Below are positions 1 through 13,873 of a stretch of 13,873 nucleotides of DNA, piece after piece. Where the stretch lies: contig JBGSTX010000340.1 of assembly GCA_041736305.1 (NCBI GenBank), forward strand, positions 1 to 13,873. Reading direction: 5' to 3'. The position numbers were made by a program, and so were the translations under genes. The notes under the pieces are model-generated. The model searched no databases and was not told where the DNA came from. It saw nothing but the letters and a program-made list of their open reading frames with translations. This stretch comes from Oligoflexus sp. (lineage in GTDB: Bacteria > Bdellovibrionota_B > Oligoflexia > Oligoflexales > Oligoflexaceae). Positions within the stretch are counted from its first letter, which is position 1; every line of letters begins with the position of its first letter.

Positions 1-259
1 TTGACCCGCCCGAGCAAGAGAGGCAACTCTCAAGCTACGTTACGAGCGAATCAGATAGTTACCCCCGGATGCTTCACCAGTCCTGGGCTCTAAGGCAAGT
101 GGTTAAACAGGAGTAAGGGGATTAGGCCAGTGCTGCTTGCAGGTAAACCGCTCGATAACTTCGGCTAGGTGACCTTTACCCGCGCAAGCGGAGTACCCTG
201 GTGTAAGCCAGGATTGTCTCTCACGAGACGGACAGCCGGGAAAGACCGGCACCTTTTTT
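1..259 (+). ncRNA. HEARO / IscB-type omegaRNA scaffold (5' end and guide lie outside the window; 3' end approximate)
   Basis: Ordered motifs recalled as typical of HEARO/omegaRNA: TTGACC (1-6), CTACGTT (35-41), GGATGC..CCAGTCC..GCTCT (67-91), GGTTAAACAG (101-110), GCCAGTG (126-132), ATAAC..GGCTAGG..CTTTACC (155-180). Pairings visible in the sequence: GAGAG-GCAA-CTCTC (18-31); GTTACGAGCG 39-48 with CGCTCG(A)TAAC 149-159; GCAAGTGG 95-102 with CTGCTTGC 133-140; loop TCACC 74-78 with GGTGA 168-172 (pseudoknot-like); GNRA hairpins at 180-191 and 197-212. Confidence 0.85.
235..259 (+). terminator. Possible intrinsic terminator / omegaRNA 3' end
   Basis: GCCGG-GAAAGA-CCGGC stem (235-250), then ACC and a T6 run (254-259). 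The stem is short and the U-tract is not immediately adjacent. Confidence 0.45.
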
Positions 260-301
260 AGGATGATCTCCGACCTGGGAGATAGATTACTCTCAATTCC
301 T

Positions 302-321
302 CCCACCGATGAATCGGTGGG
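302..321. repeat. Perfect 8-bp inverted repeat; putative TnpA (Y1)-recognised subterminal hairpin
   Basis: CCCACCGA (302-309), loop TGAA, TCGGTGGG (314-321); 20 nt before the ATGAA junction. Confidence 0.75.
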
Positions 322-341
322 TATCCCTTGCGAGGCGGTTT

Positions 342-1325
342 ATGAAACCTAGCACCTGGATTTGGCACGGCGGAGAATTAGTACCTTGGGAAAATGCTAC
401 TGTGCATGTACTCTCTCACGCGCTACACTATGGTACCAGCGTCTTTGAAGGCATACGTTGCTACCCGACCAACCGCGGTCCTAGCTTTTTTCGTCTGCAA
501 GATCACATCGATCGTCTGCTTCAGTCAGCGCACATCTATCGGATGCCCATGACGGTGGGAGCTGAAGAATTGGTCGAAGCTTGCCATACAGTGGTCGCTA
601 AGAACAATCTGACGAACGCTTATATACGTCCCATTATATTTTACGGTTATGGCAGTATGGGCATCCGTCCAACGGCTGCGACCCGTCTCGAGATGGCGGT
701 TGCGGCTTTTGAATGGGGTGCTTATCTCGGCGAAGAAGGCATCGAAAAAGGGATCGATGTCGGCGTTACCTCCTGGCAACGTGCAGCGCCGAATACCCAT
801 CCTCAGCTCGCTAAAGCCGGTGGTAACTATCTAGCTTCGTTCTTTATGGTCGACGAAGCGCGTCGGCATGGTTACACCGAAATGATCGCTCTCACGCATC
901 AAGGATTTCTCAGCGAAGGTCCGGGTGAAAACCTCTTCATTGTGCGGAAGAACAAGATCTACACCCCTTCGATCCACTGCTCTATCCTCGAGGGGCTCAC
1001 GCGCGAAACAGTCATGACTCTAGCGCGCGACATGGGCTACGAAGTCGAAGAAGGTACCTACCCACGCGAGCTTCTATATATAGCCGACGAGCTCTTTTTT
1101 ACGGGTACCGCAGCCGAGATCACTCCGATTCGCAGCGTCGATGGACAAAAAGTAGGGGAAGGTCTTCCCGGTCCTGTGACGAAAGCTCTGCAGCGCGCCT
1201 ATTTTGGTCTTTTTAAAGGCGAAACGATCGACCGCTGGAACTGGCTTACGCCTCTGGCCAAATCATCGTCCGCCCATTCCGGGGATAAGCATGCAAAAAC
1301 AAAAACCCACAAGGACGGTGTTTGA
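342..1325 (+). CDS. ilvE: Branched-chain amino acid aminotransferase (PLP class IV)
   Basis: Motifs [30 protein letters not shown] (PLP lysine), [23 protein letters not shown]. Start placed at ATG 342 ([16 protein letters not shown]), because the 309-341 extension in the ORF track is the mobile-element end. Confidence 0.96.
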
Positions 1326-2685
1326 AAAAATTTGGCGGGCCCATCTGGTAGGCGAGGAAACTCCCGACCATCCCGCTTTGCTCTACATAGACCGCCACTT
1401 TGTGCATGAAGTCACTTCGCCGCAAGCCTTTAGCGAGCTACGGCAGCGTGGTCTCTCTGTCAGGCGGCCAGATCGAACCTTTGCTACTCTCGATCATTCC
1501 ATACCTAGCGATAAGCAGCGTCGCAACTACCCCGACGCACAAGTGCGCCAGCAGGTCCAAACCCTGCGAGAGAACTGCCAAGCTTTCGGTATTGAGCTCT
1601 TTGATATGGGCTCGGCCGAACACGGTATCGTTCACGTTATCGGCCCCGAACTCGGTCTCACTCTACCAGGCCAGACCATCGTCTGCGGCGACAGCCACAC
1701 GGCTACCCACGGAGCTTTCGGTGCATTAGCCTTCGGTATCGGTACGAGCGAAGTGGGCCATGTGCTGGCTACGCAGTGCCTCTTGCAGAGGCAGCCCAAG
1801 ACTATGGCTGTGCAGGTAGAAGGAGCCCTTCCTCACGGCGTGCTGGCCAAAGACTTGATTTTGGCGATTATCAAAGAACTTGGATCCGGGGGTGGCCGCG
1901 GCTACGTGATCGAGTACCAAGGCGCTGCGATCAGGGCCCTCGACATGGAAAGTCGGATGACGGTCTGCAACATGAGCATCGAAGCTGGGGCGCGGGCTGG
2001 GCTCGTGGCTCCTGATGATCTCACCAGCGCCTATCTTAAAGGTAGGCGCTATGCACCGCAGGGCGAAGCCTGGGAGCAGGCCCTCGAGCGCTGGAATGAG
2101 CTCTACAGCGATCCCGACGCCGCGTTTGATGCAAGTCTTCGCATCGATGCTTCGAAGCTCGCGCCTATGGTAACGTTTGGAACCTCTCCCGATCAATCGA
2201 TCCCCATCGATGGGGAAGTACCGAGTTCCAATCCCGAAATCGCTGAGGCGCTCGACTATATGCGTTTCGAAGGTGGACGTGGGCTGCTGGGCACGCCTAT
2301 CGATGTGGTTTTCATCGGCAGCTGCACCAACAGTCGCATCAGCGATCTACGCATGGCTGCCAGCATTCTCAAAGGGCATAAGAAGGCAAAAAATATTCGT
2401 CTTCTGATCGTGCCCGGTTCCGAAGGAGTGAAGCGTCAGGCAGAAGCCGAGGGACTCGCCCAGATTTTTATCGAGGCCGGCGCCGAATGGCGCGAGCCGG
2501 GCTGCTCCATGTGTATCGCCATGAATGGCGATCAGCTCGAAGCTGGGCAACTTGCCCTCAGTACCAGCAATCGCAACTTCGCTGGACGGCAGGGTAAGCT
2601 CGGGCGAACTATTCTCGGCAGTCCGGCGACAGCGGCTGCTACGGCCATCCATGGCTATCTCGCCGATCCGCGGTCCTTCCTATAA
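1291..2685 (+). CDS. leuC: 3-isopropylmalate dehydratase large subunit
   Basis: [32 protein letters not shown], and Fe-S cysteines in GSCTN and GCSMC; STSNRNF. Start placed at ATG 1291 after GGGGA (1281-1285), giving a 35-nt overlap with ilvE. Confidence 0.97.
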
Positions 2686-2698
2686 TAGGAGATGAGAA

Positions 2699-3277
2699 AT
2701 GCAAGGTTGGCAAGAACTGCGTTCGAGATTTTTACTGCTCGATAAGGCCCATATCGATACCGATCAGATTATTCCGGCTCGCTTCCTGAAGCAGACCCAC
2801 AAGGAAGGCTTGGGGGCGGCTCTCTTTTGCGACTGGCGCTACGATGCTGATGGCCGTTTACGGCCAGACGAAGCTTTAAATTTTCGCAGCGACGAGGGTC
2901 TCGAGATCCTGGTCGCAGGTCCCAACTTCGGCTGCGGCTCTTCGCGAGAGCATGCGGTCTGGGCGCTTTGCGACTATGGATTCCGGGCTGTGCTGAGTCC
3001 ATCTTTGAGCGATATTTTCAAAAGCAATGCTTTGAAGAATGGCCTCCTGACTCTGGAGGTCTCAGCGGATTTCTATCAAATTCTGCTCGCGCATCCGCAC
3101 AGTCAGCTGAGTATTAATCTTGAGCGTCGCCTCGTCACGGTGGATGGGAGACATGAATTCGAATTTCAAATGGAAGGATTTGCGCGCACTTGCTTGATGC
3201 AGGGGCTTGACCAGCTCGGCTATCTCCTGCAGCATGAACCTGCCATCAAACGCTACGAAGAGGAGTATTGCCCATGA
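2699..3277 (+). CDS. leuD: 3-isopropylmalate dehydratase small subunit
   Basis: IDTDQIIPARFLK, NFGCGSSREHA, DIFKSNALKNGLL; SD AGGAG at 2687-2691; follows leuC. Confidence 0.97.
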   Translation: MQGWQELRSRFLLLDKAHIDTDQIIPARFLKQTHKEGLGAALFCDWRYDADGRLRPDEALNFRSDEGLEILVAGPNFGCGSSREHAVWALCDYGFRAVLSPSLSDIFKSNALKNGLLTLEVSADFYQILLAHPHSQLSINLERRLVTVDGRHEFEFQMEGFARTCLMQGLDQLGYLLQHEPAIKRYEEEYCP

Positions 3278-4341
3278 GAGCCAATATTGTGCTTCTGCCT
3301 GGTGACGGCATCGGACCCGAAGTAGTAGCCAGCGCCGCCGAAGTCCTTCGCTGCATAGCGAAGGCCGAAGACTGGGGTATCGAGATGCAGACCGGATACA
3401 TAGGGGGTGCGGCCTATGAGCGCTGCGGTCGACCCTTGGATCCGAAGACTCTGGAAGCCTGTCGCAGCTCAGATGCCGTTCTACTCGGTGCCGTCGGCGG
3501 ACCGCAGTGGGAGCATTTGCCGGCCCATCTTCGTCCCGAAGCAGGCCTCTTAGAGCTGCGGCAAGAACTAGGGGTTTTCGCCAATCTCCGCCCTGTGCTG
3601 GCGAGGCCCGCCTTGTATAAGCGAACCCCTTTCCGACCTGAGCTTCTCGCCGGCGTCGATTTGATATTTGTGCGTGAATTAACCGGTGGAATCTACTTCG
3701 GAGAGAAAGCGGGCGATAGCGATCAGGCCTATGATATCTGCCGCTACTCCCGCGAAGAAATCCAGCGCATTGGGCGGACTGCTGCCTCGCTTGCCCTCTC
3801 GAGAAAAGGCCGGCTTTGCTCGATTGACAAGGCTAATGTGCTCGCGACCTCTCGGCTGTGGCGTCAGGTGATGACAGAGCTGATTGAAGACGAGTTTCCC
3901 GATTTGACCCTCGAGCATGTTCTGGTCGATGCTGCTGCTATGTATCTCATGCAGCGACCCAGCAGCTTCGATGTCATCGTCACGGAAAACATGTTTGGGG
4001 ACATCCTCTCCGATGAGGCCAGCATACTCGCTGGATCGCTGGGCCTGCTCCCTTCAGCCTCGTTGGGCGATGGAAACGTCGGCCTCTACGAGCCGATCCA
4101 TGGATCGGCCCCAAGCCTTGCCGGGCAGAATCTAGCGAATCCCATCGGTGCGATCCTCAGCGTCGCTCTCATGCTGCGACACAGTCTGGAAGCACCCCAG
4201 ATAGCCGACCGAATCGAAGCAGCTGTTGAAGCGCTGATCGAGGAGGATTTTCTCACGCCTGATCTCGCCGAGGGTACGCCCCGTACGACCGCTGAAGTCA
4301 CAGCTCGGGTTTGCCAGCATCTTAGCAAAAAATTTATCTGA
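3274..4341 (+). CDS. leuB: 3-isopropylmalate dehydrogenase
   Basis: LPGDGIGPEV, GAVGGPQW, RELTGGIYFG, DKANVL, NMFGDILSDEAS, YEPIHGSAP. ATG 3274 overlaps the leuD stop (ATGA); SD GAGGAG at 3260-3265. Confidence 0.97.
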   Translation: MRANIVLLPGDGIGPEVVASAAEVLRCIAKAEDWGIEMQTGYIGGAAYERCGRPLDPKTLEACRSSDAVLLGAVGGPQWEHLPAHLRPEAGLLELRQELGVFANLRPVLARPALYKRTPFRPELLAGVDLIFVRELTGGIYFGEKAGDSDQAYDICRYSREEIQRIGRTAASLALSRKGRLCSIDKANVLATSRLWRQVMTELIEDEFPDLTLEHVLVDAAAMYLMQRPSSFDVIVTENMFGDILSDEASILAGSLGLLPSASLGDGNVGLYEPIHGSAPSLAGQNLANPIGAILSVALMLRHSLEAPQIADRIEAAVEALIEEDFLTPDLAEGTPRTTAEVTARVCQHLSKKFI

Positions 4342-4534
4342 CCAGTTTGAGATGGTTGCCGTGGTTTGCTAGCCTTTCATTGGCGCTAGCAACTATGGCT
4401 TCGGACTTCCGACGGGCTTCAGCTTGGATTTCCATAGGTGAGAAAGAGGTTTGGCTCTGCAGCTTCAGGCCAAAGTTCCGATATAAAGTATACAGTGTAA
4501 CGATACCGAGCAGCGTCAAGAGCGAAGGCTGCAT
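4334..4534 (-). CDS. Small hypothetical single-pass membrane protein (66 aa)
   Basis: From the internal Met (MQPSLLTLLGIVTLYTLY...NHLKLVR). AGGGAG SD lies 6 nt upstream; a hydrophobic N-terminus is followed by a helical charged segment; stop is convergent with and overlaps leuB. Confidence 0.55.
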   Translation of the reverse strand: MQPSLLTLLGIVTLYTLYRNFGLKLQSQTSFSPMEIQAEARRKSEAIVASANERLANHGNHLKLVR

Positions 4535-4665
4535 GATGTACTCCCTAGGAAAGGCGCTTGATCGGGAAAGAGACTCGGGCCTAGCCGAGCTGTTCATTCA
4601 ATGATACCTCATGGGGAAGAATTTGGAACGGCCTTCAATTATATTCAAGTGAGGCTAAGGATATT

Positions 4666-5220
4666 TTGAGATCTAAACTGCTTCGAACTCCTGCCCCGAC
4701 TCTCCTACTGAGCTTTCTCTGTTTGAGTGGTGGAGCTTGCGCGAGTCTAAAAGAAATGTTCACTAGCGAGACCGACTACAAACCGAAGATAGAAGCGGGT
4801 CAGGATCCAACGGAGAAGCGAGAGAAGGGTGGCTATCGCACAATCATAGCCGGTGACGATCGATTCAACGTTGAGTATACGGTCGAGTCGCGCAACGATG
4901 TCCGCGATGCCGCTATCTGGGGACTCTATCGGTCTGCAGAAGTCGCTTTGCAGGAGGACGCTGCTTATTTAGTGTTCATTCGAGGACGGGTAGACAGCGT
5001 AGGGTACGAATATGTAGTGAAAGGCAGCCGGGCCTATAAACCTGAGGCGCAGCCGCCCACAGGTAAAAAAGGCGGGACTGCCTCTTTCCTCTTCCGCGTC
5101 TTTAAAGATAAGGCTGAGGCGGAGGCTTTTAAGAAAGACCCCTCTGTCACCCATCCTCTCGTCTACAGCAGCGAAGATCTCAAGAAACGGCTGAGTCCTT
5201 TTTTACCAGCTGCATCGTGA
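4666..5220 (+). CDS. Putative lipoprotein, resembling the CC0125/CC1285-like family
   Basis: Basic N-terminus, hydrophobic stretch and imperfect lipobox (LSGGA-C). Core GGY..IAGDDRFNVEY...LYRSAEVALQEDAAY resembles that family's GY..DRFxV..LYRAAE pattern (by eye). Confidence 0.65.
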   Translation: MRSKLLRTPAPTLLLSFLCLSGGACASLKEMFTSETDYKPKIEAGQDPTEKREKGGYRTIIAGDDRFNVEYTVESRNDVRDAAIWGLYRSAEVALQEDAAYLVFIRGRVDSVGYEYVVKGSRAYKPEAQPPTGKKGGTASFLFRVFKDKAEAEAFKKDPSVTHPLVYSSEDLKKRLSPFLPAAS

Positions 5221-5226
5221 AAACAT

Positions 5227-7212
5227 CTACATTAAGGCTTGATTGGGGCAGGGGGAAGAAGAAATGGCGCCATGAGCTATAGGAGGAGGAAGCTGATTCC
5301 TGGCATATCCAACTATTTTCTCGAGCAGTATACCAATACTGAAGGGTTTAGTGAGGTGGTCATTGCACCCGACTTCGAAGGCTCTGACCTTCTCATCTTT
5401 CATCGCCGCGGCGGAAACAGCCAAGATGGGGCGCTGATAGCCACTGGCTCGCAGCTTAGCGGTGGCATCGAATCCATCGAGCAGAGGCATATGCAGATCC
5501 ATCAACACCACATCGAATTCGTGGTCGCGGAGGATTACGACGGCTTCGAGGCCGTTTTCGGCCAGGGCTATGGTAGCTCCGTACTGCGCGAGAATCTGGC
5601 TAGCCAGGGCTCGGCTGTCGGGAGCATCTTCGACGATCAGTACCGAGATGCCCTCGAGCAATCTTTCGTTCTCCAGACCTAGATCTATCGAGCTTGGGGC
5701 ATGAATCAAATCGCGTTGTTCGTTCTCTCCCATGAGGCGCCAGCTTCCTTGGGCGTCGCGAGCTTGGACGGAAACCCGAAAGGTCGAACCAAAGCCGGGA
5801 TTACTGTAAACCAGATCGACCGTCCCACCCAAGAGCTGGGCCAGACGCCGTGAGAGGATCAGACCCAAACCGGTCCCACCGAAATTGCGGGCGACCGAGG
5901 CGTCGGCCTGCGAGAAGGCCATGAAGAGCCGGCTTTGCTGCAGCGGTTCTATACCAGGGCCGGTATCCATCACCGAGAATACGATGTCGATTGGGAGGCC
6001 CCGAGCCGTGCTCTTGCTCGTGATGTTGACGTGAACGCCCCCTTGCTGGGTGAACTTAACGGCGTTACCGACGATATTAATCAAAATCTGCTTGAGACGC
6101 ACAGGGTCGGACATAAACGTTTCGGGTAGTCCAAAATCGGAAGTGACGCGCAGGTAAATGCCCTTGTCGGCGGCTTGCTTGCCGATCAATTTGATGACAT
6201 CGGTGACTATCTCTGGCAGTGAGCAGCGAATATGCTCCACCTCCATCCGGCTAGCTTCTACCTTCGAGAGATCGAGAATATCATCGAGCAGCTGCTGAAG
6301 GAGTTTGCCATTGCGGGTGATCGTTCGAATAAAGTCACGCTGTTTTTCCGGCGAAAGCCGACTATTCTGCACCAGCTCTGCGAAACCCATGATGGCGTTC
6401 AGAGGGGTACGAATCTCGTGACTCATGTTGGCGAGAAACACGCTCTTCGCCTCGTTTGCACGTTCAGCGGACTCTTTGGCTTCCTTAAGTTCTTCTTCGA
6501 CTCGCTTCTTGTCTGTGATGTCCATGGCAATGCCAGCCATGCGAATCGGAAGCTCTGCATCGTCATAGAAGGCTCGCGCCTTCACCAAGCTCCAGCGAAT
6601 TCCGCCATCCGGCGTAACTATGCGAATCTCAATACTGAGATCGTTCTTGTAGGCTAGAGCTTGTTTTGCAGCTTCTTCAATCCGTGGCAAATCTTCAGGC
6701 GGAATTCTACTCTTGAATTCATGTGTTGCTAACTTTTCGGCCTGTCCGGTGCTGCCCGGTGTCCAAATTACCTCACCCGATCCTAAGTCCCAATCCCAGC
6801 TACTGATCTGTGCTACGTCTATTGCGAAGCGAACATTACTTTTTCTCTGCATAGCCTGCTTGAGCATCCGGACGAGTATCCATGACTGCAGATGTTCCAA
6901 GGGTAAAAGGTCAAAACTGAGCTGTGGATCCTTGATAAGATTTTCAACCTGCGACAATTCTGAAGAGCGATACACGAGAAGCAGCGGCGAAGAGGCGATA
7001 CTCCTGAACAAGGCGTAGGCGTCAGCCGGATTCATCTTTAGGAGATTCGCAGTATCCAACAAATAAACAAGATCAGTGCTAGCTTTGTAATTGACGAGGG
7101 CCTGGGGGTTGGGAACATAGACTTGAGCTATACCCTCCTCTTGGAGAAGGGAACTCAGCTCTTGCACAACGCTGGCATCGACGCAGAGGCAAACTCTAAA
7201 AGTTTCGCTCAT
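5227..7212 (-). CDS. Cytoplasmic hybrid sensor histidine kinase (degenerate REC-like - PAS/PAC - HisKA - HATPase - REC)
   Basis: SWDWD...IPPEDL...IRW..KAR..DITDKK (PAS/PAC); H-box FLANMSHEIRTPLN; N-box NIVGNAVKFT; G boxes DTGPGI and GGTGLGL; receiver IVED...LMDLHMP...KPF. No TM segment seen. Start at ATG 7212 preferred (GAGG upstream). Confidence 0.93.
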   Translation of the reverse strand: MSETFRVCLCVDASVVQELSSLLQEEGIAQVYVPNPQALVNYKASTDLVYLLDTANLLKMNPADAYALFRSIASSPLLLVYRSSELSQVENLIKDPQLSFDLLPLEHLQSWILVRMLKQAMQRKSNVRFAIDVAQISSWDWDLGSGEVIWTPGSTGQAEKLATHEFKSRIPPEDLPRIEEAAKQALAYKNDLSIEIRIVTPDGGIRWSLVKARAFYDDAELPIRMAGIAMDITDKKRVEEELKEAKESAERANEAKSVFLANMSHEIRTPLNAIMGFAELVQNSRLSPEKQRDFIRTITRNGKLLQQLLDDILDLSKVEASRMEVEHIRCSLPEIVTDVIKLIGKQAADKGIYLRVTSDFGLPETFMSDPVRLKQILINIVGNAVKFTQQGGVHVNITSKSTARGLPIDIVFSVMDTGPGIEPLQQSRLFMAFSQADASVARNFGGTGLGLILSRRLAQLLGGTVDLVYSNPGFGSTFRVSVQARDAQGSWRLMGENEQRDLIHAPSSIDLGLENERLLEGISVLIVEDAPDSRALASQILAQYGATIALAENGLEAVVILRDHEFDVVLMDLHMPLLDGFDATAKLRASGYQRPILAVSAAAMKDEKVRAFEVGCNDHLTKPFSIGILLEKIVGYARNQLPPPIAHGAISSSPCPNQALM

Positions 7213-7290
7213 CGGTATCCTCAACAGGCGCCGTAAGCTGGCGTTTCAAGGCAGCAAAGGTATCAGTACACATCAGTCAAATTCCTCGGT

Positions 7291-7518
7291 TCAAAACCAC
7301 CCACGTTGAAAAATCTCTAAATCAAAATGCAATGCATGCAGATGACTACCATCGGCAAGTTCTTCAGCTTGAGGATGAGCGAGGTGCATGAAACCCCGTT
7401 CATCTACGACAAACAAAGATGCAGGTAAATCGGCAATTTGAAAGAGCGGCTTGAAGTCCTGCTGTTTTGCATCGGGACTAGCACAGGTCATATACGCTGC
7501 GAAAAGGTCGCTGGTCAT
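7291..7518 (-). CDS. Small hypothetical protein (75 aa) with a partial PAS-like motif
   Basis: GGAGG SD 5 nt before ATG 7518; DLPASLFVVDERGFMHLAHPQAEEL resembles the start of a PAS fold; co-oriented with and just upstream of the kinase. Confidence 0.55.
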   Translation of the reverse strand: MTSDLFAAYMTCASPDAKQQDFKPLFQIADLPASLFVVDERGFMHLAHPQAEELADGSHLHALHFDLEIFQRGWF

Positions 7519-7916
7519 GGGTGCCTCCAACTAAAAAGAGAACGATAAAAAAAGATAAATTTCTGAAGCTCGCTCAGTCTGAAAATATTCGTACTCGCTT
7601 ACACGATTTCTAGTGCTGAAATGGAGATATGAATTTTGCCAATCTTTGTTCGTGATCGCTGCGAACAAAATTTTTAGCCATCTTATTACAACTCTTTGCG
7701 GAGTCTAGATGGAAAATAAATCTTTACTCAATTCGCTCGGAGAGACTGATCCCTTTCCCCTAGTCGCTATGAGGAGACGATTGGCGCGAGAGACGGGCTG
7801 TAGAGCGTTGGTTTGACGTGAATTCCTAGAGATAGCCGGCCTTCGGTTTCCGTGTTATGAACGAGCTTGAAAAAGTTTGGTTTATGGGCGGTCCTATTAG
7901 CAAAATATGCGCCTCA

Positions 7917-7959
7917 ATTACTCCTCAAGCGGCCTCTCGTATGGGAGGCGCTAAGTAAT
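7917..7959 (+). promoter_or_regulatory. Candidate thrS leader stem-loop with a Thr anticodon-like (CGU) loop
   Basis: ATTACT 7917-7922 / AGTAAT 7954-7959, AGC 7928-7930 / GCT 7950-7952 and GCCTC 7932-7936 / GAGGC 7945-7949 enclose TCGTATGG; the hairpin ends 15 nt before the SD AAAGG (7975-7979). Confidence 0.4.
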
Positions 7960-7987
7960 AAGTCTGTTGTATTGAAAGGTTGCCTTG

Positions 7988-9823
7988 ATGAACGCGTCTG
8001 CGTCTGCCTCCGCCTCTGCTGCTCAAGATGCTAATGTGAAGCTTCACAAAATTCGTCATTCACTGGCCCATGTTCTGGCCCAAGCGGTACAGTTGAAATA
8101 TCCTGACGTGCAGATGGGCTTCGGGCCGCCGACTGAGCATGGTTTTTACTATGACTTCGATTTCGGTGTGAAAGCTATAGCCGAGTCCGACCTTAAAGAT
8201 ATTGAAAAGCAGATGCGCAAAATCATCGGTGCCGCGCAGTCCTTTGAATATTTTGAATTCGATTATGAGGGAGCCATCAAGTTCCTCGAAGGGCACGGCG
8301 TTGCTCCTTATAAGCTGCAAAATTTGCAGAATCTACGCGAACGAGGCGAGACCAAGTTCACGTTTTACAAGACCGGTCCCTTCTTGGATGTCTGCGAAGG
8401 TCCTCATGTGAACAGCACTCAGCAGCTGCCTGCCGATGCGTTCAAGCTCGATCGGATCGCTGGTGCCTATTGGCTTGGCGATGAAAAGAACAAGATGCTG
8501 ACGCGCATCTACGGCCTTGCGTTTGAGAATCGCCAGCAGCTCGACGACTTCCTCAAACGCCGGCAGATGGCCGAGGAGTTTGACCATAAAAAACTCGGCA
8601 AAGACCTCGATATTTATCATTATGAGGATATTGTCGGCAAAGGTTTGCCGCTCTGGCTGCCCAACGGCACGGTTATCCGTGATGAGATTCAGCGCTATGC
8701 CATGGAGATGGAATTCAAGTATGGCTACAAGCGCGTAGCTACTCCCAATATAGCGAAGGGCGATCTCTACCTGCGCTCGCAGCACTTGCCAGCTTATCGC
8801 GAGTCCATGTTTCCGCCGATGGTGATCGAAGAAGAAGAAAAGAAGACAGAATACTATCTCAAGCCGATGAACTGTCCGCATCATCACTTGATCTACGCTG
8901 CTCGCCGGCGCAGCTATCGCGATCTGCCTCTGCGCCTGGCAGAATACGGGACCTGCTACCGCTACGAGCAGTCGGGCGAAATTTCTGGTCTGATCCGCGT
9001 GCGCTGCATGACGATGAACGATGCGCATATTTACCTGCGCGAGAGCCAGTTCACCGAAGAGTTCAGCAAGCTCCTTAAAATGTACCAGGAGTTCTATGCG
9101 ACCTTCCAACTCAGCGAATACCGCTTCCGGCTCTCCCTGCGCGGGGAGGGGAGTGAGAAATTCCGCGGCGAAGGCGAGATGTGGGACAAGGCGGAGCAGC
9201 TGCTCGAAAAGGCCTTGCAAGATGCTGGCGTCCCTTTTTATCGAGGGGAAGGTGAAGCAGCCTTTTACGGCCCAAAGATCGACATTCAGTTTAGAAACCT
9301 CATGGGTCGAGAAGAGACTGTTTCGACCATCCAGGTCGACTTTCTCAGTCCGGCCAATTTCGATCTCGCCTATGTCGACGAGCAAGGCCAGGATCAAAAG
9401 CCTATCATCATCCACCGCTCGCCGCTCTCGACTCACGAACGCTTTATCAGCTATCTGATCGAATACTACGGCGGGGCTTTTCCCGTCTGGTGCGCTCCCG
9501 TTCAGGTGGTTTTGATTCCCGTCAACGATGCGTGTGCAGCCTACTGCCACGAGTTTCAGGCCGAGCTCCATAGCCAGATGATTCGCGCTGAAGTCGATGA
9601 GTCGGATCACAGCTTCAACAAGAAAATTCGCAGTCATACGATGCGGAAGGTTCCGCTGCTGCTGATCGTAGGGCAAAAGGAACTTGAAGAGCGTAAAGTC
9701 ACTGTCCGCCGCTACGGGATTCAGGAGCAAAAGACGATGGATAAAGCGGAATTTGCGACTGAACTGCTCAGCGAGGCCAAGCAGCGTTTGATGTTCAGAA
9801 AACCGATGGGTGCTTTGATTTAA
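7988..9823 (+). CDS. thrS: Threonine--tRNA ligase, short form lacking the TGS domain
   Basis: Editing motifs RHSLAH, GFYYDF, DVCEGPHV, GAYWLGD; DHKKLG; zinc-site motifs KPMNCP, NDAHI, IIHRS; GEAAFYGPKID; C-terminal anticodon-binding domain. ATG 7988 preferred over TTG 7985. Confidence 0.97.
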   Translation: MNASASASASAAQDANVKLHKIRHSLAHVLAQAVQLKYPDVQMGFGPPTEHGFYYDFDFGVKAIAESDLKDIEKQMRKIIGAAQSFEYFEFDYEGAIKFLEGHGVAPYKLQNLQNLRERGETKFTFYKTGPFLDVCEGPHVNSTQQLPADAFKLDRIAGAYWLGDEKNKMLTRIYGLAFENRQQLDDFLKRRQMAEEFDHKKLGKDLDIYHYEDIVGKGLPLWLPNGTVIRDEIQRYAMEMEFKYGYKRVATPNIAKGDLYLRSQHLPAYRESMFPPMVIEEEEKKTEYYLKPMNCPHHHLIYAARRRSYRDLPLRLAEYGTCYRYEQSGEISGLIRVRCMTMNDAHIYLRESQFTEEFSKLLKMYQEFYATFQLSEYRFRLSLRGEGSEKFRGEGEMWDKAEQLLEKALQDAGVPFYRGEGEAAFYGPKIDIQFRNLMGREETVSTIQVDFLSPANFDLAYVDEQGQDQKPIIIHRSPLSTHERFISYLIEYYGGAFPVWCAPVQVVLIPVNDACAAYCHEFQAELHSQMIRAEVDESDHSFNKKIRSHTMRKVPLLLIVGQKELEERKVTVRRYGIQEQKTMDKAEFATELLSEAKQRLMFRKPMGALI

Positions 9824-9870
9824 CAAGTCCCGACGCCCAAAGGTGTCACGGTCTGAAGGGGTTCTGAACT

Positions 9871-10281
9871 ATGGTTCGTATGTCGCCTGAACTCGCTAAA
9901 ACGTTTATCGGCGTGCAGCCAGACGGCTGCCTCTCGCGCTGCCCAGAAACGCCTAACTGCGTATGTAGCCAGCATCCCGATGACGCCTCGCACTATATGG
10001 AGGCTTTCTCCTTCAAGGGTAGTCTAGCGGACGCTCAAAACCGCATTCGAGCCCTCATTCGCAGTATACCGAAGGCAGTGATCGTCGATGAGAGAGGGCC
10101 TTATATCCACGCGACTTTCACTTCGGGCTTTTTCAAGTTCGTCGACGATGTTGAGTTTTTGATCAAGCCCGAAGAGTCCCGGATCCATTTTCGCTCAGCC
10201 TCGCGGCTGGGGCGTTCGGATCTGGGGGCGAATAAGCGGCGGATGCAGAAGCTAAAGGAGCATTTTGATCGCATGGGTTGA
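9871..10281 (+). CDS. DUF1499 family protein
   Basis: CPETPNCVCSQ, FKFVDDVEF and HFRSASRLGRSDLGANKRR are characteristic of DUF1499. Confidence 0.88.
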   Translation: MVRMSPELAKTFIGVQPDGCLSRCPETPNCVCSQHPDDASHYMEAFSFKGSLADAQNRIRALIRSIPKAVIVDERGPYIHATFTSGFFKFVDDVEFLIKPEESRIHFRSASRLGRSDLGANKRRMQKLKEHFDRMG

Positions 10282-10292
10282 TGCGAGTCCGG

Positions 10293-11630
10293 CTAGCTTT
10301 TACATAAGCTGGCCAGCTCACGCCGATACTTGACGATGTCTATGTTCTGCCGCGCGACTCCTGATGCAATAGCTGCTGCAGCGACTGCCGACGAAACTTC
10401 GACTAGAGCGCGTGGATCATTGGGTTTAGGGATGATATAGCGCCGTCCAAAACTGAGAATGCCTTCTTTTTCATAGACTTTCTGGACCTCCGGCAGAACT
10501 TTCTCCTTAGCCAGTGCAGCGATAGCCACCGCTGCCGCCTTCTTCATTTCTTCATTAATAGTCCGCGCCTGCACATCCAGAGCTCCCCGAAAAATGTAGG
10601 GAAAGCCGAGTACGTTATTAACCTGATTAGGGAAGTCGCTGCGCCCGGTAGCAATAATAACATCGGGGCGAACGCTCAAGGCCAGGTGCGGTGTGATTTC
10701 TGGATCGGGATTGGCGAGGGCGAAGACGATAGGATCGCGAGCCATCGAACGCAGCATGCCGCTACTCATCAGACCGGCAGCGGATACACCGACGAAAACG
10801 TCACTACCCTTCAGTGCCTCTTCGAGCGAACGCAAAGATGTCTGCCGGGCAAAGCGCCGCTTGAATACGTTGAGGTCGGGTCGCTCGCTCTGAATGACTC
10901 CCTTGCTATCGCACATGAGCAGATTCTCAGGGTTCACGCCAGCGGTCAAAAACATCTGGGCACAGGCTATTGCGGCTGCGCCGCCGCCGGAAAATACAAG
11001 TTTAATATCCTCGATTTTCTTTTTAACCAGCTCGAGTGAGTTCAACAGCCCAGCCGTAGCAATAATCGCTGTGCCGTGCTGATCGTCATGAAAGACTGGT
11101 ATCCCCATCTTGGCCTTTAAAGCCTCTTCGATGTGAAAGCACTCAGGAGCTTTGATGTCTTCGAGATTGATTCCACCAAAGGTGGGCTCTAAAGCTGCAA
11201 CCATGCGGATGAAGGCTTCCGTATTGTCTTCGTCGATCTCGAGGTCGAAGGAATCGATGCCGGCGAATTTCTTGAACAGCATCGCCTTGCCTTCCATCAC
11301 GGGTTTCGCGGCATAGGCTCCAATGGAACCCAGACCGAGTACAGCTGTCCCGTTTGAGATTACGGCTACGAGATTTCCACGACCTGTGTAGCGAAACGAG
11401 AGGTCACGATTACCTTCAATCAGGCGACAGGGTCCAGCTACACCCGGTGAATAGGCCATGGCCAAATCCTCGCGCGTGTCGAGGGGCTTCTTGAGATAAG
11501 TCCCAATTTTGCCGCGAGCTTCTCGCTCATGATAAGCAAGAGCGAGATGTTCGTAGTCGATAAGCACGGGGGCTTCTACTGCCTGGGACTTGGGGGACAA
11601 CCTAATCTCTTGAGTCTCCATATTTTTCAT
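10293..11630 (-). CDS. NAD(P)-dependent malic enzyme (MaeB-like catalytic part only, no PTA domain)
   Basis: [73 protein letters not shown]. Start placed at ATG 11630 after a GGGAG SD (445 aa). Confidence 0.93.
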
Positions 11631-11915
11631 CGCAATTTCTCCCTGCTGGGTCTGAGGACGTTTCAGCGCCGGTCGAGCTAAGCTTAATATTCGTAGGCTA
11701 ACATGTGTAACCTGAAGCTCGAGGTATATCTTAAAGAGTAACAAAGGCGAAGATTAATTCCAATACAGCGAATCGAAAGCCTCATTTTTCGCTCAAAGAT
11801 CGTAGCTTTTTCGTTTATTTGGGCTTTTTTGGCAGACAATCCGCATCCCCTTTCATTGCGAAGAAAGCCCCGTAGCGGTAGACTGTAGCGACGTTTAGAG
11901 TCAGGAGGGTCTGTG

Positions 11916-13061
11916 ATGCTTGAAGCTCGTTATGCACGACAGATGATACTCAAGGAAATAGGACAGACAGGCCAAGAAAAGTTGGCTCAGAGCCGCGTAC
12001 TCATCGTGGGTCTCGGAGGACTGGGATCTCCCGCGGCTCTTTATCTCGCAGCGGCGGGCGTCGGTACTTTAGGTCTGCTTGACGATGATCGAGTTGATAT
12101 CACGAATCTACAGCGTCAGGTGTTGTATACCACAGCCGATCAAGGTCATAGCAAAGTTGAGAAAGCCGCACTGCGCCTGCAGGAGCTGAATCCCAATCTA
12201 CGCATCAATATTCATTACGAGCGGCTACACGCCGCCAATGCCATCGTGCTGATTCAAGACTACGATATTATTATCGATGGAACGGATAACTTCGCCAGTA
12301 AGTTTCTCCTCAACGACGTCGCTGTCAAACTTAGAAAGCCTCTCGTCTATGGCTCGATTCTCCGCTGGGAAGGTCAGCTCGCCGTCTTCTGGGCTCCCTA
12401 CGGACCCTGCTATCGCTGCCTCTTCCCGGCGCCGCCCGAACGTCCAGTCGCCAACTGCGCCGAAGCCGGAGTTGTAGGAGCACTGGCGGGTACGGTAGGC
12501 AGTCTGCAGGCCCTTGAAGCTATCAAGCTTATCGTGGCTGGTGCTCCTCCTTATGAAAAGCTGAGCCCCATGCTTGGCCATCTCTGGCTCATCCGCTCGG
12601 CGACGATGGAAACGCAGAGACTCCGCATTCAGCGCAATCCTGCCTGTCCCGTCTGCAGTAAAGCTGCTGATTCTATTTCTATCACCGACCTTCACCACGG
12701 TGAGCAAGCTTGTGGGACTTTACTGAAGAATGCTGCTGCTGCAGGTTTCGAAGAATATGCGGCGGCTGAGCTGCTCGAGAAGAACCGTTGGCAGGATTTT
12801 CAGTGGATAGATGTGCGTGAGATTGAAGAATGGAACGCAGGACACATCCCTGGTGCTAAGCACTGGCCCCTCTCGCAGCTGATGAGTGGGCATATGCCAC
12901 CCGAACTTGAGAGCGAGACTCTGCTCCTCTACTGTCAAGGCGGAAGACGTTCGGCTATGGCGGGTGAGCTGCTGCTCGGTCGTGGTTTCACGCTCAAGGG
13001 GCACATGAAGGATGGCTTTAAAGCTTGGCACGGACCTATCGAAAGGCCGCAGCTCTCTTAG
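11916..13061 (+). CDS. moeB: ThiF/MoeB-family adenylyltransferase fused to a rhodanese domain (MoeZ/MoeBR type)
   Basis: RYARQ, GLGGLG, TNLQRQ, DGTDNF, zinc motifs CYRC and CPVC, NCAEAG; C-terminal rhodanese DVRE..EW..GHIPGA with active loop CQGGRRS; SD AGGAGG at 11903-11908. Confidence 0.92.
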   Translation: MLEARYARQMILKEIGQTGQEKLAQSRVLIVGLGGLGSPAALYLAAAGVGTLGLLDDDRVDITNLQRQVLYTTADQGHSKVEKAALRLQELNPNLRINIHYERLHAANAIVLIQDYDIIIDGTDNFASKFLLNDVAVKLRKPLVYGSILRWEGQLAVFWAPYGPCYRCLFPAPPERPVANCAEAGVVGALAGTVGSLQALEAIKLIVAGAPPYEKLSPMLGHLWLIRSATMETQRLRIQRNPACPVCSKAADSISITDLHHGEQACGTLLKNAAAAGFEEYAAAELLEKNRWQDFQWIDVREIEEWNAGHIPGAKHWPLSQLMSGHMPPELESETLLLYCQGGRRSAMAGELLLGRGFTLKGHMKDGFKAWHGPIERPQLS

Positions 13062-13831
13062 AGTTCGCTCGAATAAATCGGCTGATCAGGATGCGACTTT
13101 GCTTGGGGAACACTGATCGGTTTCAGCCAAGGGCTACTGAGCCAGCCGAGGAAAAAGCCTAATGCCAGACCAATGGCATGGGTGCGGTAGCTGACCTGCG
13201 GCTCGATCTGACTGGGAGCTAGGACGACGAGAATAAAGGCTAGCGTCCGCATGCTCCTCTGTATCCAACTCAAATAGTCGGCATACTTCCAGAAAAGCAG
13301 CAGCCAGAGAGCCGCCATAAGATAAACCATGCCTGAAGCACCGATCAACTTCACCTGTGGGTCATAGGTGCCTAGCGCTAAAGCCGTGGTGAGAATTCCA
13401 CCGAGCAAGCTTAGCGTCGGGAAGGCCCAGGTGCCGAAGTACTGACGAAGAAAGAGACCAAAGACCAGGAAGAGACCGCTGTTAGCTAGGAGATGGGCGA
13501 GGTCTGCGTGCACAAAGAGAGTCGTGAGGAGTCGCCAGTATTCTCCCTTCCCGAAAACATCAGCAGCTCGTGCTGACCAGAGTTCATAACCTGGATATTG
13601 ACCCCAGACCCACATACTGAAGAAGGCGGAGATAAGTAAAAGTGCGAGGGCAGGATAAGCACTTTTGAACTCAAGCTTTTGGCCTAGTGGATGGGAGCTG
13701 ATGTCGAAGCGGTGGATAATATCTTCCGGGGTCTCGCCTCCTGGCATGAAGCTCTGTCGATCGAGAGACCATTGGGCTATGGGCGCAGGGGCGGACGTGC
13801 TAGTAGATTCTTCTCGATCAGCTAAGTTCAT
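13058..13831 (-). CDS. Rhomboid-family intramembrane serine protease
   Basis: YWRLLT, HADLAHLLAN, catalytic GASG and SYRTHAIG, multiple TM segments. ATG 13831 preferred (GGAGG 7 nt upstream); stop overlaps the moeB stop. Confidence 0.92.
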   Translation of the reverse strand: MNLADREESTSTSAPAPIAQWSLDRQSFMPGGETPEDIIHRFDISSHPLGQKLEFKSAYPALALLLISAFFSMWVWGQYPGYELWSARAADVFGKGEYWRLLTTLFVHADLAHLLANSGLFLVFGLFLRQYFGTWAFPTLSLLGGILTTALALGTYDPQVKLIGASGMVYLMAALWLLLFWKYADYLSWIQRSMRTLAFILVVLAPSQIEPQVSYRTHAIGLALGFFLGWLSSPWLKPISVPQAKSHPDQPIYSSEL

Positions 13832-13873
13832 GGCATGGCCTCCAGGCATTACCTTACTAAAATAAAGCGCTTC

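Follow-up and report, generated by a model that had tools for sequence, protein, structure and literature searches.

IStrons combine a group I intron with an IS605 or IS607 element. The HEARO RNA family was reportedly described by Weinberg in 2009, and stand-alone omegaRNAs are said to have been described by Altae-Tran in 2021. The closest mobile elements are the PATEs related to ISGst5 of Geobacillus stearothermophilus, an element with IscB and the TAM TTCAT, some of which encode omegaRNAs; in the parts of that source covered here, IscB omegaRNAs rely on outside promoters, the DNA-guide principle is described, and the bias reported concerns the orientation of upstream genes, not docking at host starts (Meers 2023, bioRxiv 10.1101/2023.03.14.532601). 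Furthermore, the ISC transposons ISC1-1_MA, ISC2-1_HM and ISC2-1_MS are listed with the target N|ATGA in the portion consulted of Kapitonov, Makarova, Koonin 2016 (PMC4810608).

The element analyzed here shares its RNA family and fold with HEARO and stand-alone omegaRNAs, but the open reading frame that follows is a host gene instead of the HNH frame of HEARO. Like IStrons, it would be an IS605-type element that limits the harm to the gene where it lands; unlike them it has no ribozyme, and the rescue proposed here is translation re-initiation at the element end. As far as the covered parts of Meers 2023 describe them, the ISGst5-related PATEs resemble it in the lack of a protein gene, IS605-type ends, a retained omegaRNA and an identical target word (ATGAA being the complementary strand of TTCAT), as well as in the reliance on a host promoter and the guide from outside the right end that are proposed for our element; the terminator-like module that replaces iscB distinguishes our element from them. 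The element itself is of a known kind, since omegaRNA-bearing PATEs are already in print (Meers 2023). With the three ISC transposons, as presented in the consulted portion of PMC4810608, it shares the initial 5'-GT, an insertion point on the 5' side of ATGA with no duplication of the target and mobilization in trans by a Y1 TnpA, which for our element is a proposal, but they encode IscB. A term look-up in the covered text of Meers 2023, the main text of Kapitonov 2016, a 2026 review and a 2022 HEARO paper returned no mention of host start codons or ribosome-binding sites, the one start codon named in Meers 2023 labeling a plot axis, and a search of literature listings turned up nothing about docking at start codons or about ribosome-binding sites being replaced.

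A protein-free IscB-type element with an intact omegaRNA

The window, the whole 13,873-nt stretch of DNA analyzed, corresponds to the complete contig C178 of genome G000 (1-13873), which begins inside a repeat. Positions 1-341 hold the 3' portion of an IscB-type (ISC/IS605) element that is 401 nt long and protein-free. The features are:

1-179, plus strand: omegaRNA/HEARO core scaffold, assigned by covariance score and covariation
1-5, plus strand: TTGAC, which forms the 3' side of the first omegaRNA stem; it pairs with GTCAA, the first 5 nt of the element, on contig C80
180-215, plus strand: two further hairpins; in iscB-bearing relatives the equivalent stretch runs into the start codon of iscB
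216-259, plus strand: module that replaces iscB in protein-free copies, with a hairpin (216-229), a terminator-like stem (235-250) and six T (254-259)
266-283, plus strand: hairpin ATCTCC-N6-GGAGAT, kept ahead of the left end in elements of either target-word subfamily, protein-free or iscB-bearing
302-321, minus strand: left-end subterminal hairpin with an 8-bp stem, by analogy a putative TnpA binding site; the transposed strand is the minus strand
322-325, minus strand: predicted DNA guide GATA (TATC on the plus strand), fitting the target TCAT
332-335, plus strand: Shine-Dalgarno-like GAGG within the linker of 16 nt (326-341) at the left end, spaced 6 nt from the ATG, anti-Shine-Dalgarno pairing of -5.9 kcal/mol, predicted 51% unpaired
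342-346, plus strand: target word ATGAA, host DNA, encoding Met3-Lys4 of the uninterrupted ilvE and now holding the first ATG of the downstream frame
342-1325, plus strand: ilvE, branched-chain amino acid transaminase, intact, 327 aa (NF005146, 422 bits, profile positions 6-306 from residue 4)

A densely paired HEARO/omegaRNA had been proposed at the start of the window in a first-pass annotation made from the letters alone. The covariance search agrees with it: HEARO (RF02033, gathering threshold 83 bits) matched window 1-179 with 85.9 bits (E 1.4e-16, model positions 48-211), a match that is 5'-truncated because the contig begins there. In the search of the whole genome the same copy scored 78.1 bits, just below the 83-bit cut-off, and two complete siblings scored 103.6 and 113.9. 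The three long-range pairings that had been claimed are all present: GTTA-CGAGCG (39-48) with CGCTCG-A-TAAC (149-159), with one bulge; GCAAGTGG (95-102) with CTGCTTGC (133-140), with two G-U pairs; and TCACC (74-78) with GGTGA (168-172). Across 13 aligned copies from 6 genomes, these helices and one more, all taken from the window copy, had 96.2% of cells paired vs 30-43% in slid controls, and compensatory change altered both sides in 16 of 30 pairs, the shuffle test of covariation being inflated by the kinship of the sequences.

Three sibling copies of window 1-346 were found in G000, at 93-99% likeness: on C179 (98.6%), C371 (96.5%) and C342 (92.8%). Those on C371 and C342 are complete (400 and 401 nt), start with GTCAAC and have no gene inside. 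The window element likewise contains no frame of at least 80 aa, and iscB is absent between the scaffold and the hairpin at 302-321, as the annotation had read it; the locus thus departs from the OMEGA layout, with iscB directly 3' of the omegaRNA. Both ends without a protein gene, over 401 nt across C80 and the window, are the features of a PATE. A 487-nt protein-free copy before glyA (L242, G009:C8) shows an extra 40-nt hairpin insert inside the scaffold.

Precise insertion at the start of ilvE

On contig C80, leuA (named by eye) is followed by AAGGAG-CAGAC-ATG-TCT and then by the initial 200 nt of the element. The sequence at C80 1-140 matches window 1-140 without a difference, and the missing 60 nt correspond to C80 200-141 on the minus strand, where the right end reads GTCAA-hairpin-CATG. 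The GTCAA-type start expected upstream was therefore recovered. The limits of the element were corrected relative to the first-pass annotation: its 3' limit is 341, directly before the ilvE ATG at 342, and its start is 60 nt upstream, on C80.

The empty site was found in a sister-strain sequencing run, X2, where one 878-nt contig spans C80 583-201 (6 differences in 383) and continues with ATGAAACCTAGC. The same contig covers window 341-836, and ATGAAACCTAGC is the window from 342 onward, so that leuA is joined straight to ATGAAA. This fixes the join between C80 and the window and the element length (60 + 341 nt), and shows that the element inserted precisely on the 5' side of ATGAA with no duplication, the behavior of IS200/IS605 elements, which insert beside a fixed 4-5-nt word and leave no target duplication. 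Together with the covariance match, the GTCAA-type start and the complete siblings, the empty site bears out the earlier reading of a non-autonomous IscB-type element with an intact scaffold.

Among 30 relatives searched, five genomes of the same genus hold ilvE at 75-77% identity, and in all five the protein begins M-S-I/V-K straight after leuA. These junctions and the X2 site place the element after codon 2 of ilvE, at the in-frame Met3. Upstream of the insertion the native AAGGAG-N5-ATG-TCT remains, and downstream the frame is intact from Met3 on. After ilvE come leuC, leuD and leuB (these three named by eye from sequence), all intact. The ATG at 309 was rejected as the ilvE start: it lies inside the left-end hairpin, has no Shine-Dalgarno (SD) sequence and is not in the frames of the start-docked siblings.

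Since leuA joins ilvE directly in the five close orthologues, the locus is not the conserved native ilvE leader that the annotation had set as the alternative. Domestication of the RNA for a leader or regulatory role in the leucine operon is very improbable: the position inside leuA-ilvE-leuCDB and the terminator-like hairpin carried would suit such a role, but the RNA is missing at 5/5 close orthologous loci and in the strain that is 98.5% alike, empty sites that already contradict it. Furthermore, the same sequence is found at unrelated genes, and its guide has no other ATGA-flanked target in the assembly (0 matches with seeds of 16, 12 or 10 nt).

Transposon ends, target words and candidate proteins

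The end hairpin described in the annotation folds as stated and was equalled by 0 of 200 shuffles of 295-345; a hairpin occupies the matching place in other ends of the family. The order on the plus strand is hairpin 302-321, TATC, 16-nt linker and ATGAA, which on the other strand reads TCAT, linker, GATA and hairpin. GATA and TCAT are matched here by the IS608-type guide-target pairing rule, which we take to apply. The genus also has a second subfamily, whose ends lie before ATAA or TTAA and whose guide covaries with the target, with TATT accompanying ATAA and AATT accompanying TTAA. Subterminal hairpins with guides fitting the cleavage words, together with dispersed copies, are as in IS605 elements. 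A pattern scan of other contigs for the left-end hairpin gave 70 loci, mostly from unrelated taxa and probably due to chance, and was discarded.

Y1 tnpA is represented in G000 by three partial genes at contig ends and a broken one, with 3' ends unlike that of the element. Two longer iscB genes, on C219 and C254, belong to the other subfamily with the other target word, and their scaffold is 70% alike. The IscB with the ATGAA target is represented by its C-terminal 241 aa on C109, and the 3' end of this gene recurs at five contig positions. A cognate transposase in G000 and loading of the RNA in trans by IscB are plausible.

Three further loci of G000 were recorded. The iscB at C219:25612-26742 encodes 377 aa, about 17 aa below the C254 copy, with no left end after it, and is probably a 3'-truncated element. 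At C254:4800-4850 a TTAA-target element appears on the stop codon of an opposite-strand gene (smc-like by eye). Finally, a tnpB element at C150:4661 ends in a right end like that of the IscB family, GTCAAC-hairpin-CATG, with the opposite gene orientation.

A terminator-like module in place of iscB

The module at 216-259 has 9 matches in G000 and none in 110 iscB-bearing loci, some of which are duplicates. The same terminator-like hairpin occurs in protein-free copies of two omegaRNA subfamilies (window 216-259; G000 C59 and C194; L060). A promoter scan of window 1-400 found 0 sites.

The stem, at -11.2 kcal/mol, and its six T could act as an internal terminator, with no promoter found by the scan, so that the insertion would silence or strongly lower ilvE-leuCDB as a recent, mildly harmful event still unpurged or undone by excision. 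The insertion is recent, given that the sister strain is empty and that the copy is 98.6% alike to that on C179. We consider silencing improbable, since the same module also precedes intact etfB, an SDR and a histidine kinase in G000 and glyA in G009, three bases separate the stem from the T-run, which is short in several copies, and ilvE and the next three frames are intact.

Start-codon docking within G000

A left-end profile search of G000 gave 27 matches, 18 of which end at ATGAA, a proportion partly built in because the profile itself contained ATGA; six ends of the second subfamily, one degenerate and two weak ones were left out. Gene starts were those of a simple purpose-made gene caller (4517 genes in G000). 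Background ATGAA sites number 12,444, with 747 at starts (6.0%), 12.1% intergenic and 82% within genes. Seven of the 18 ends are at called starts (p=5e-5) and, with two recognized by homology (DUF5985 and YidC), 9/18 open intact genes (p=3e-7). Eight of the rest look intergenic and one lies inside a gene, vs the 82% expected. Compared with start and intergenic sites only, starts are not enriched (9/18 vs 33% expected, p=0.11), and nothing shows aimed targeting beyond the ATGAA word. What is missing, therefore, is insertion within genes, and starts are tolerated like intergenic DNA. The sole copy in a coding region is the complete sibling at C371:29319-29718, which breaks an IS5-type transposase-like gene (by eye) in the opposite orientation.

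Evidence independent of the left end comes from the upstream flanks: a native SD ends 7/12 of them vs 11.5% in the background (p=1e-4); these 12 come from a list of 18 flank rows, weak or other-type rows being left out. In addition, an eroded 129-nt element with both ends (G000:C155:8026-8154, L153) lies between a native GGAGGAG and the ATG of the only yidC. Its omegaRNA is lost, and GGAG is kept 8 nt before the ATG. Among the four relatives covered, the yidC junction is plain in three and the same a few codons on in the fourth, and the element is absent.

Docking in relatives and metagenomes

In genomes of the same genus, ATGA ends account for 12/21 loci, and seven precede frames of at least 196 aa: Fic, GlyA, TrxB, endonuclease V, IleRS, VIT1 and one without a family. 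In G002, a 1624-nt iscB element is at the ATG of ileS, which has only one copy over the cut-off, and G006 holds the empty site. Across the phylum, IscB turned up in 13 of 131 genomes. The complete genome G119, of another family and with another end sequence, has four iscB elements, which precede nrdR, kdsA, pssA and a polyprenyl synthase gene (4/4), all with GAGG-type ends; kdsA has one strong match in that genome. A fifth end is before a 317-aa frame.

The metagenome set contains 80 loci of related IscB, and the rule applied seeks only ATGA ends, other targets not being countable. There are 49 distinct ATGA ends, 30 of them before frames of at least 100 aa, and an SD is present in only 11. 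Nevertheless, 22 of the 38 SD-less ends still precede such frames. The iscB stop overlaps the host ATG in 17 of the 38 (Fisher p=0.015, on non-independent loci) and is within 12 nt in seven. Many of the SD-less elements (L162-L173, L185, L195, L218 and others) have an iscB frame that extends through the left end, with the TGA of the target ATGA as its stop codon; this overlap of stop and start is the classic layout of translational coupling. Of the 30 loci with long frames, 23 allowed the right end to be located, and in these a native SD was displaced by 8/17 SD-less and 2/6 SD-bearing ends, and no association between end SD and native SD was found in these 23.

The Shine-Dalgarno-like motif of the element end

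Ends were scored against an anti-SD sequence that we assume to be the one used by these hosts. Pairing of -5 kcal/mol or stronger is found in 16 of the 18 ends (median -6.15), vs 9% of intergenic sites and 56% of called starts, the latter raised by the SD bonus of the gene caller itself. The motif is spaced 5-9 nt from the ATG and is kept across several end sequences, with the exception of the start-docked copy on C84, where it is missing. The sister subfamily with ATAA or TTAA targets has no SD in the linker (-2.4 kcal/mol, two ends scored at the junction). At yidC, ileS and kdsA the element end is the only sequence before the ATG. The GAG also pairs, in an outer stem (290-296 with 328-334), with a CTC that precedes the hairpin. 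In 5/8 scored ends the motif is predicted to be mostly paired (0-12% unpaired; the lower quartile of native starts is 12%), the window copy not being one of these five. Because the family copies are related, the shared motif represents few lineages and not 18 events; furthermore, since SD is absent from most metagenome ATGA ends, it is a lineage trait and not a requirement.

These elements could instead be ordinary selfish PATEs that strike starts only through the ATGAA word, with GAG(G) as a structural arm and genes surviving by leak-through, stop-start coupling or weak initiation independent of that arm. This explanation, which we regard as rather unlikely, draws on the outer stem arms, which covary in several end types, on the lack of enrichment of starts over intergenic sites, on the SD-less majority of distant ends with their frequent iscB stops at or near the host ATG, and on the unlinked native and end SDs. 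Several details of the motif oppose it. G335, which turns GAG into GAGG, faces A289 and is unpaired, yet is mostly kept; one G119 end type combines a perfect AGCTCG/CGAGCT stem with a separate GGAGG beyond that stem, and the other reads GAGGT, its stem containing a G-G mismatch. Moreover, protein-free copies offer no frame for coupling, and the motif is missing from the non-ATG subfamily.

We favor, as the probable explanation, that an IscB-family element of 401 nt, free of protein genes but with its omegaRNA intact, lies exactly before ATGAA in the start of ilvE and that the GAGG of its end is likely a replacement ribosome-binding site from which the gene is predicted to be translated. Docking at start codons with an SD-bearing end is well supported as a pattern; its mechanism is a prediction from sequence.

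Proposed mechanism and wider reading

With the replacement ribosome-binding site as the working explanation, Y1 TnpA acting in trans would have inserted the element, reading TCAT through the GATA guide beside the hairpin at 302-321, as IS605 biology suggests. The leu operon promoter would then transcribe the omegaRNA, whose guide would consist of the leuA end and the native ribosome-binding site, and an ATGAA-specific IscB from elsewhere may cut only the empty allele, which would retain the insertion. The stem and T-run at 235-259 would give the RNA its 3' end but leak, and ribosomes would restart at GAGG-N6-ATG. Tolerance of start codons like intergenic DNA, with within-gene insertions purged, is attributed to a target word that is a common gene start and to an end that can restart translation.

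More tentatively, and with somewhat less than even confidence, IscB/IS605 lineages with ATGA targets may use host start codons as a niche, in which the host promoter drives the omegaRNA in the right orientation and the nuclease retains the element. The end would restore translation through a built-in SD (the lineage of the window, G119) or through overlap of the iscB stop with the host ATG, and the protein-free copies would form a genome-wide set of terminator-bearing guide-RNA genes through which essential genes have their ribosome-binding sites swapped. If the end restarts translation, this would explain how an RNA-guided transposon dependent on host promoters sits inside operons and before single-copy yidC, ileS and kdsA without breaking them. 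It would be a damage-limiting route other than that of the self-splicing IStrons, and would make these elements natural swappers of translation signals. The pairs of filled and empty alleles (ilvE; ileS in G002/G006) make the idea directly testable.

The rest of the window, examined by eye, encodes a hybrid sensor kinase (5227-7224, minus strand), threonine-tRNA ligase (7985-9823, plus), malic enzyme (10293-11630, minus), a MoeB-rhodanese protein (11913-13061, plus) and a rhomboid-type protein (13058-13849, minus), and shows nothing unusual.
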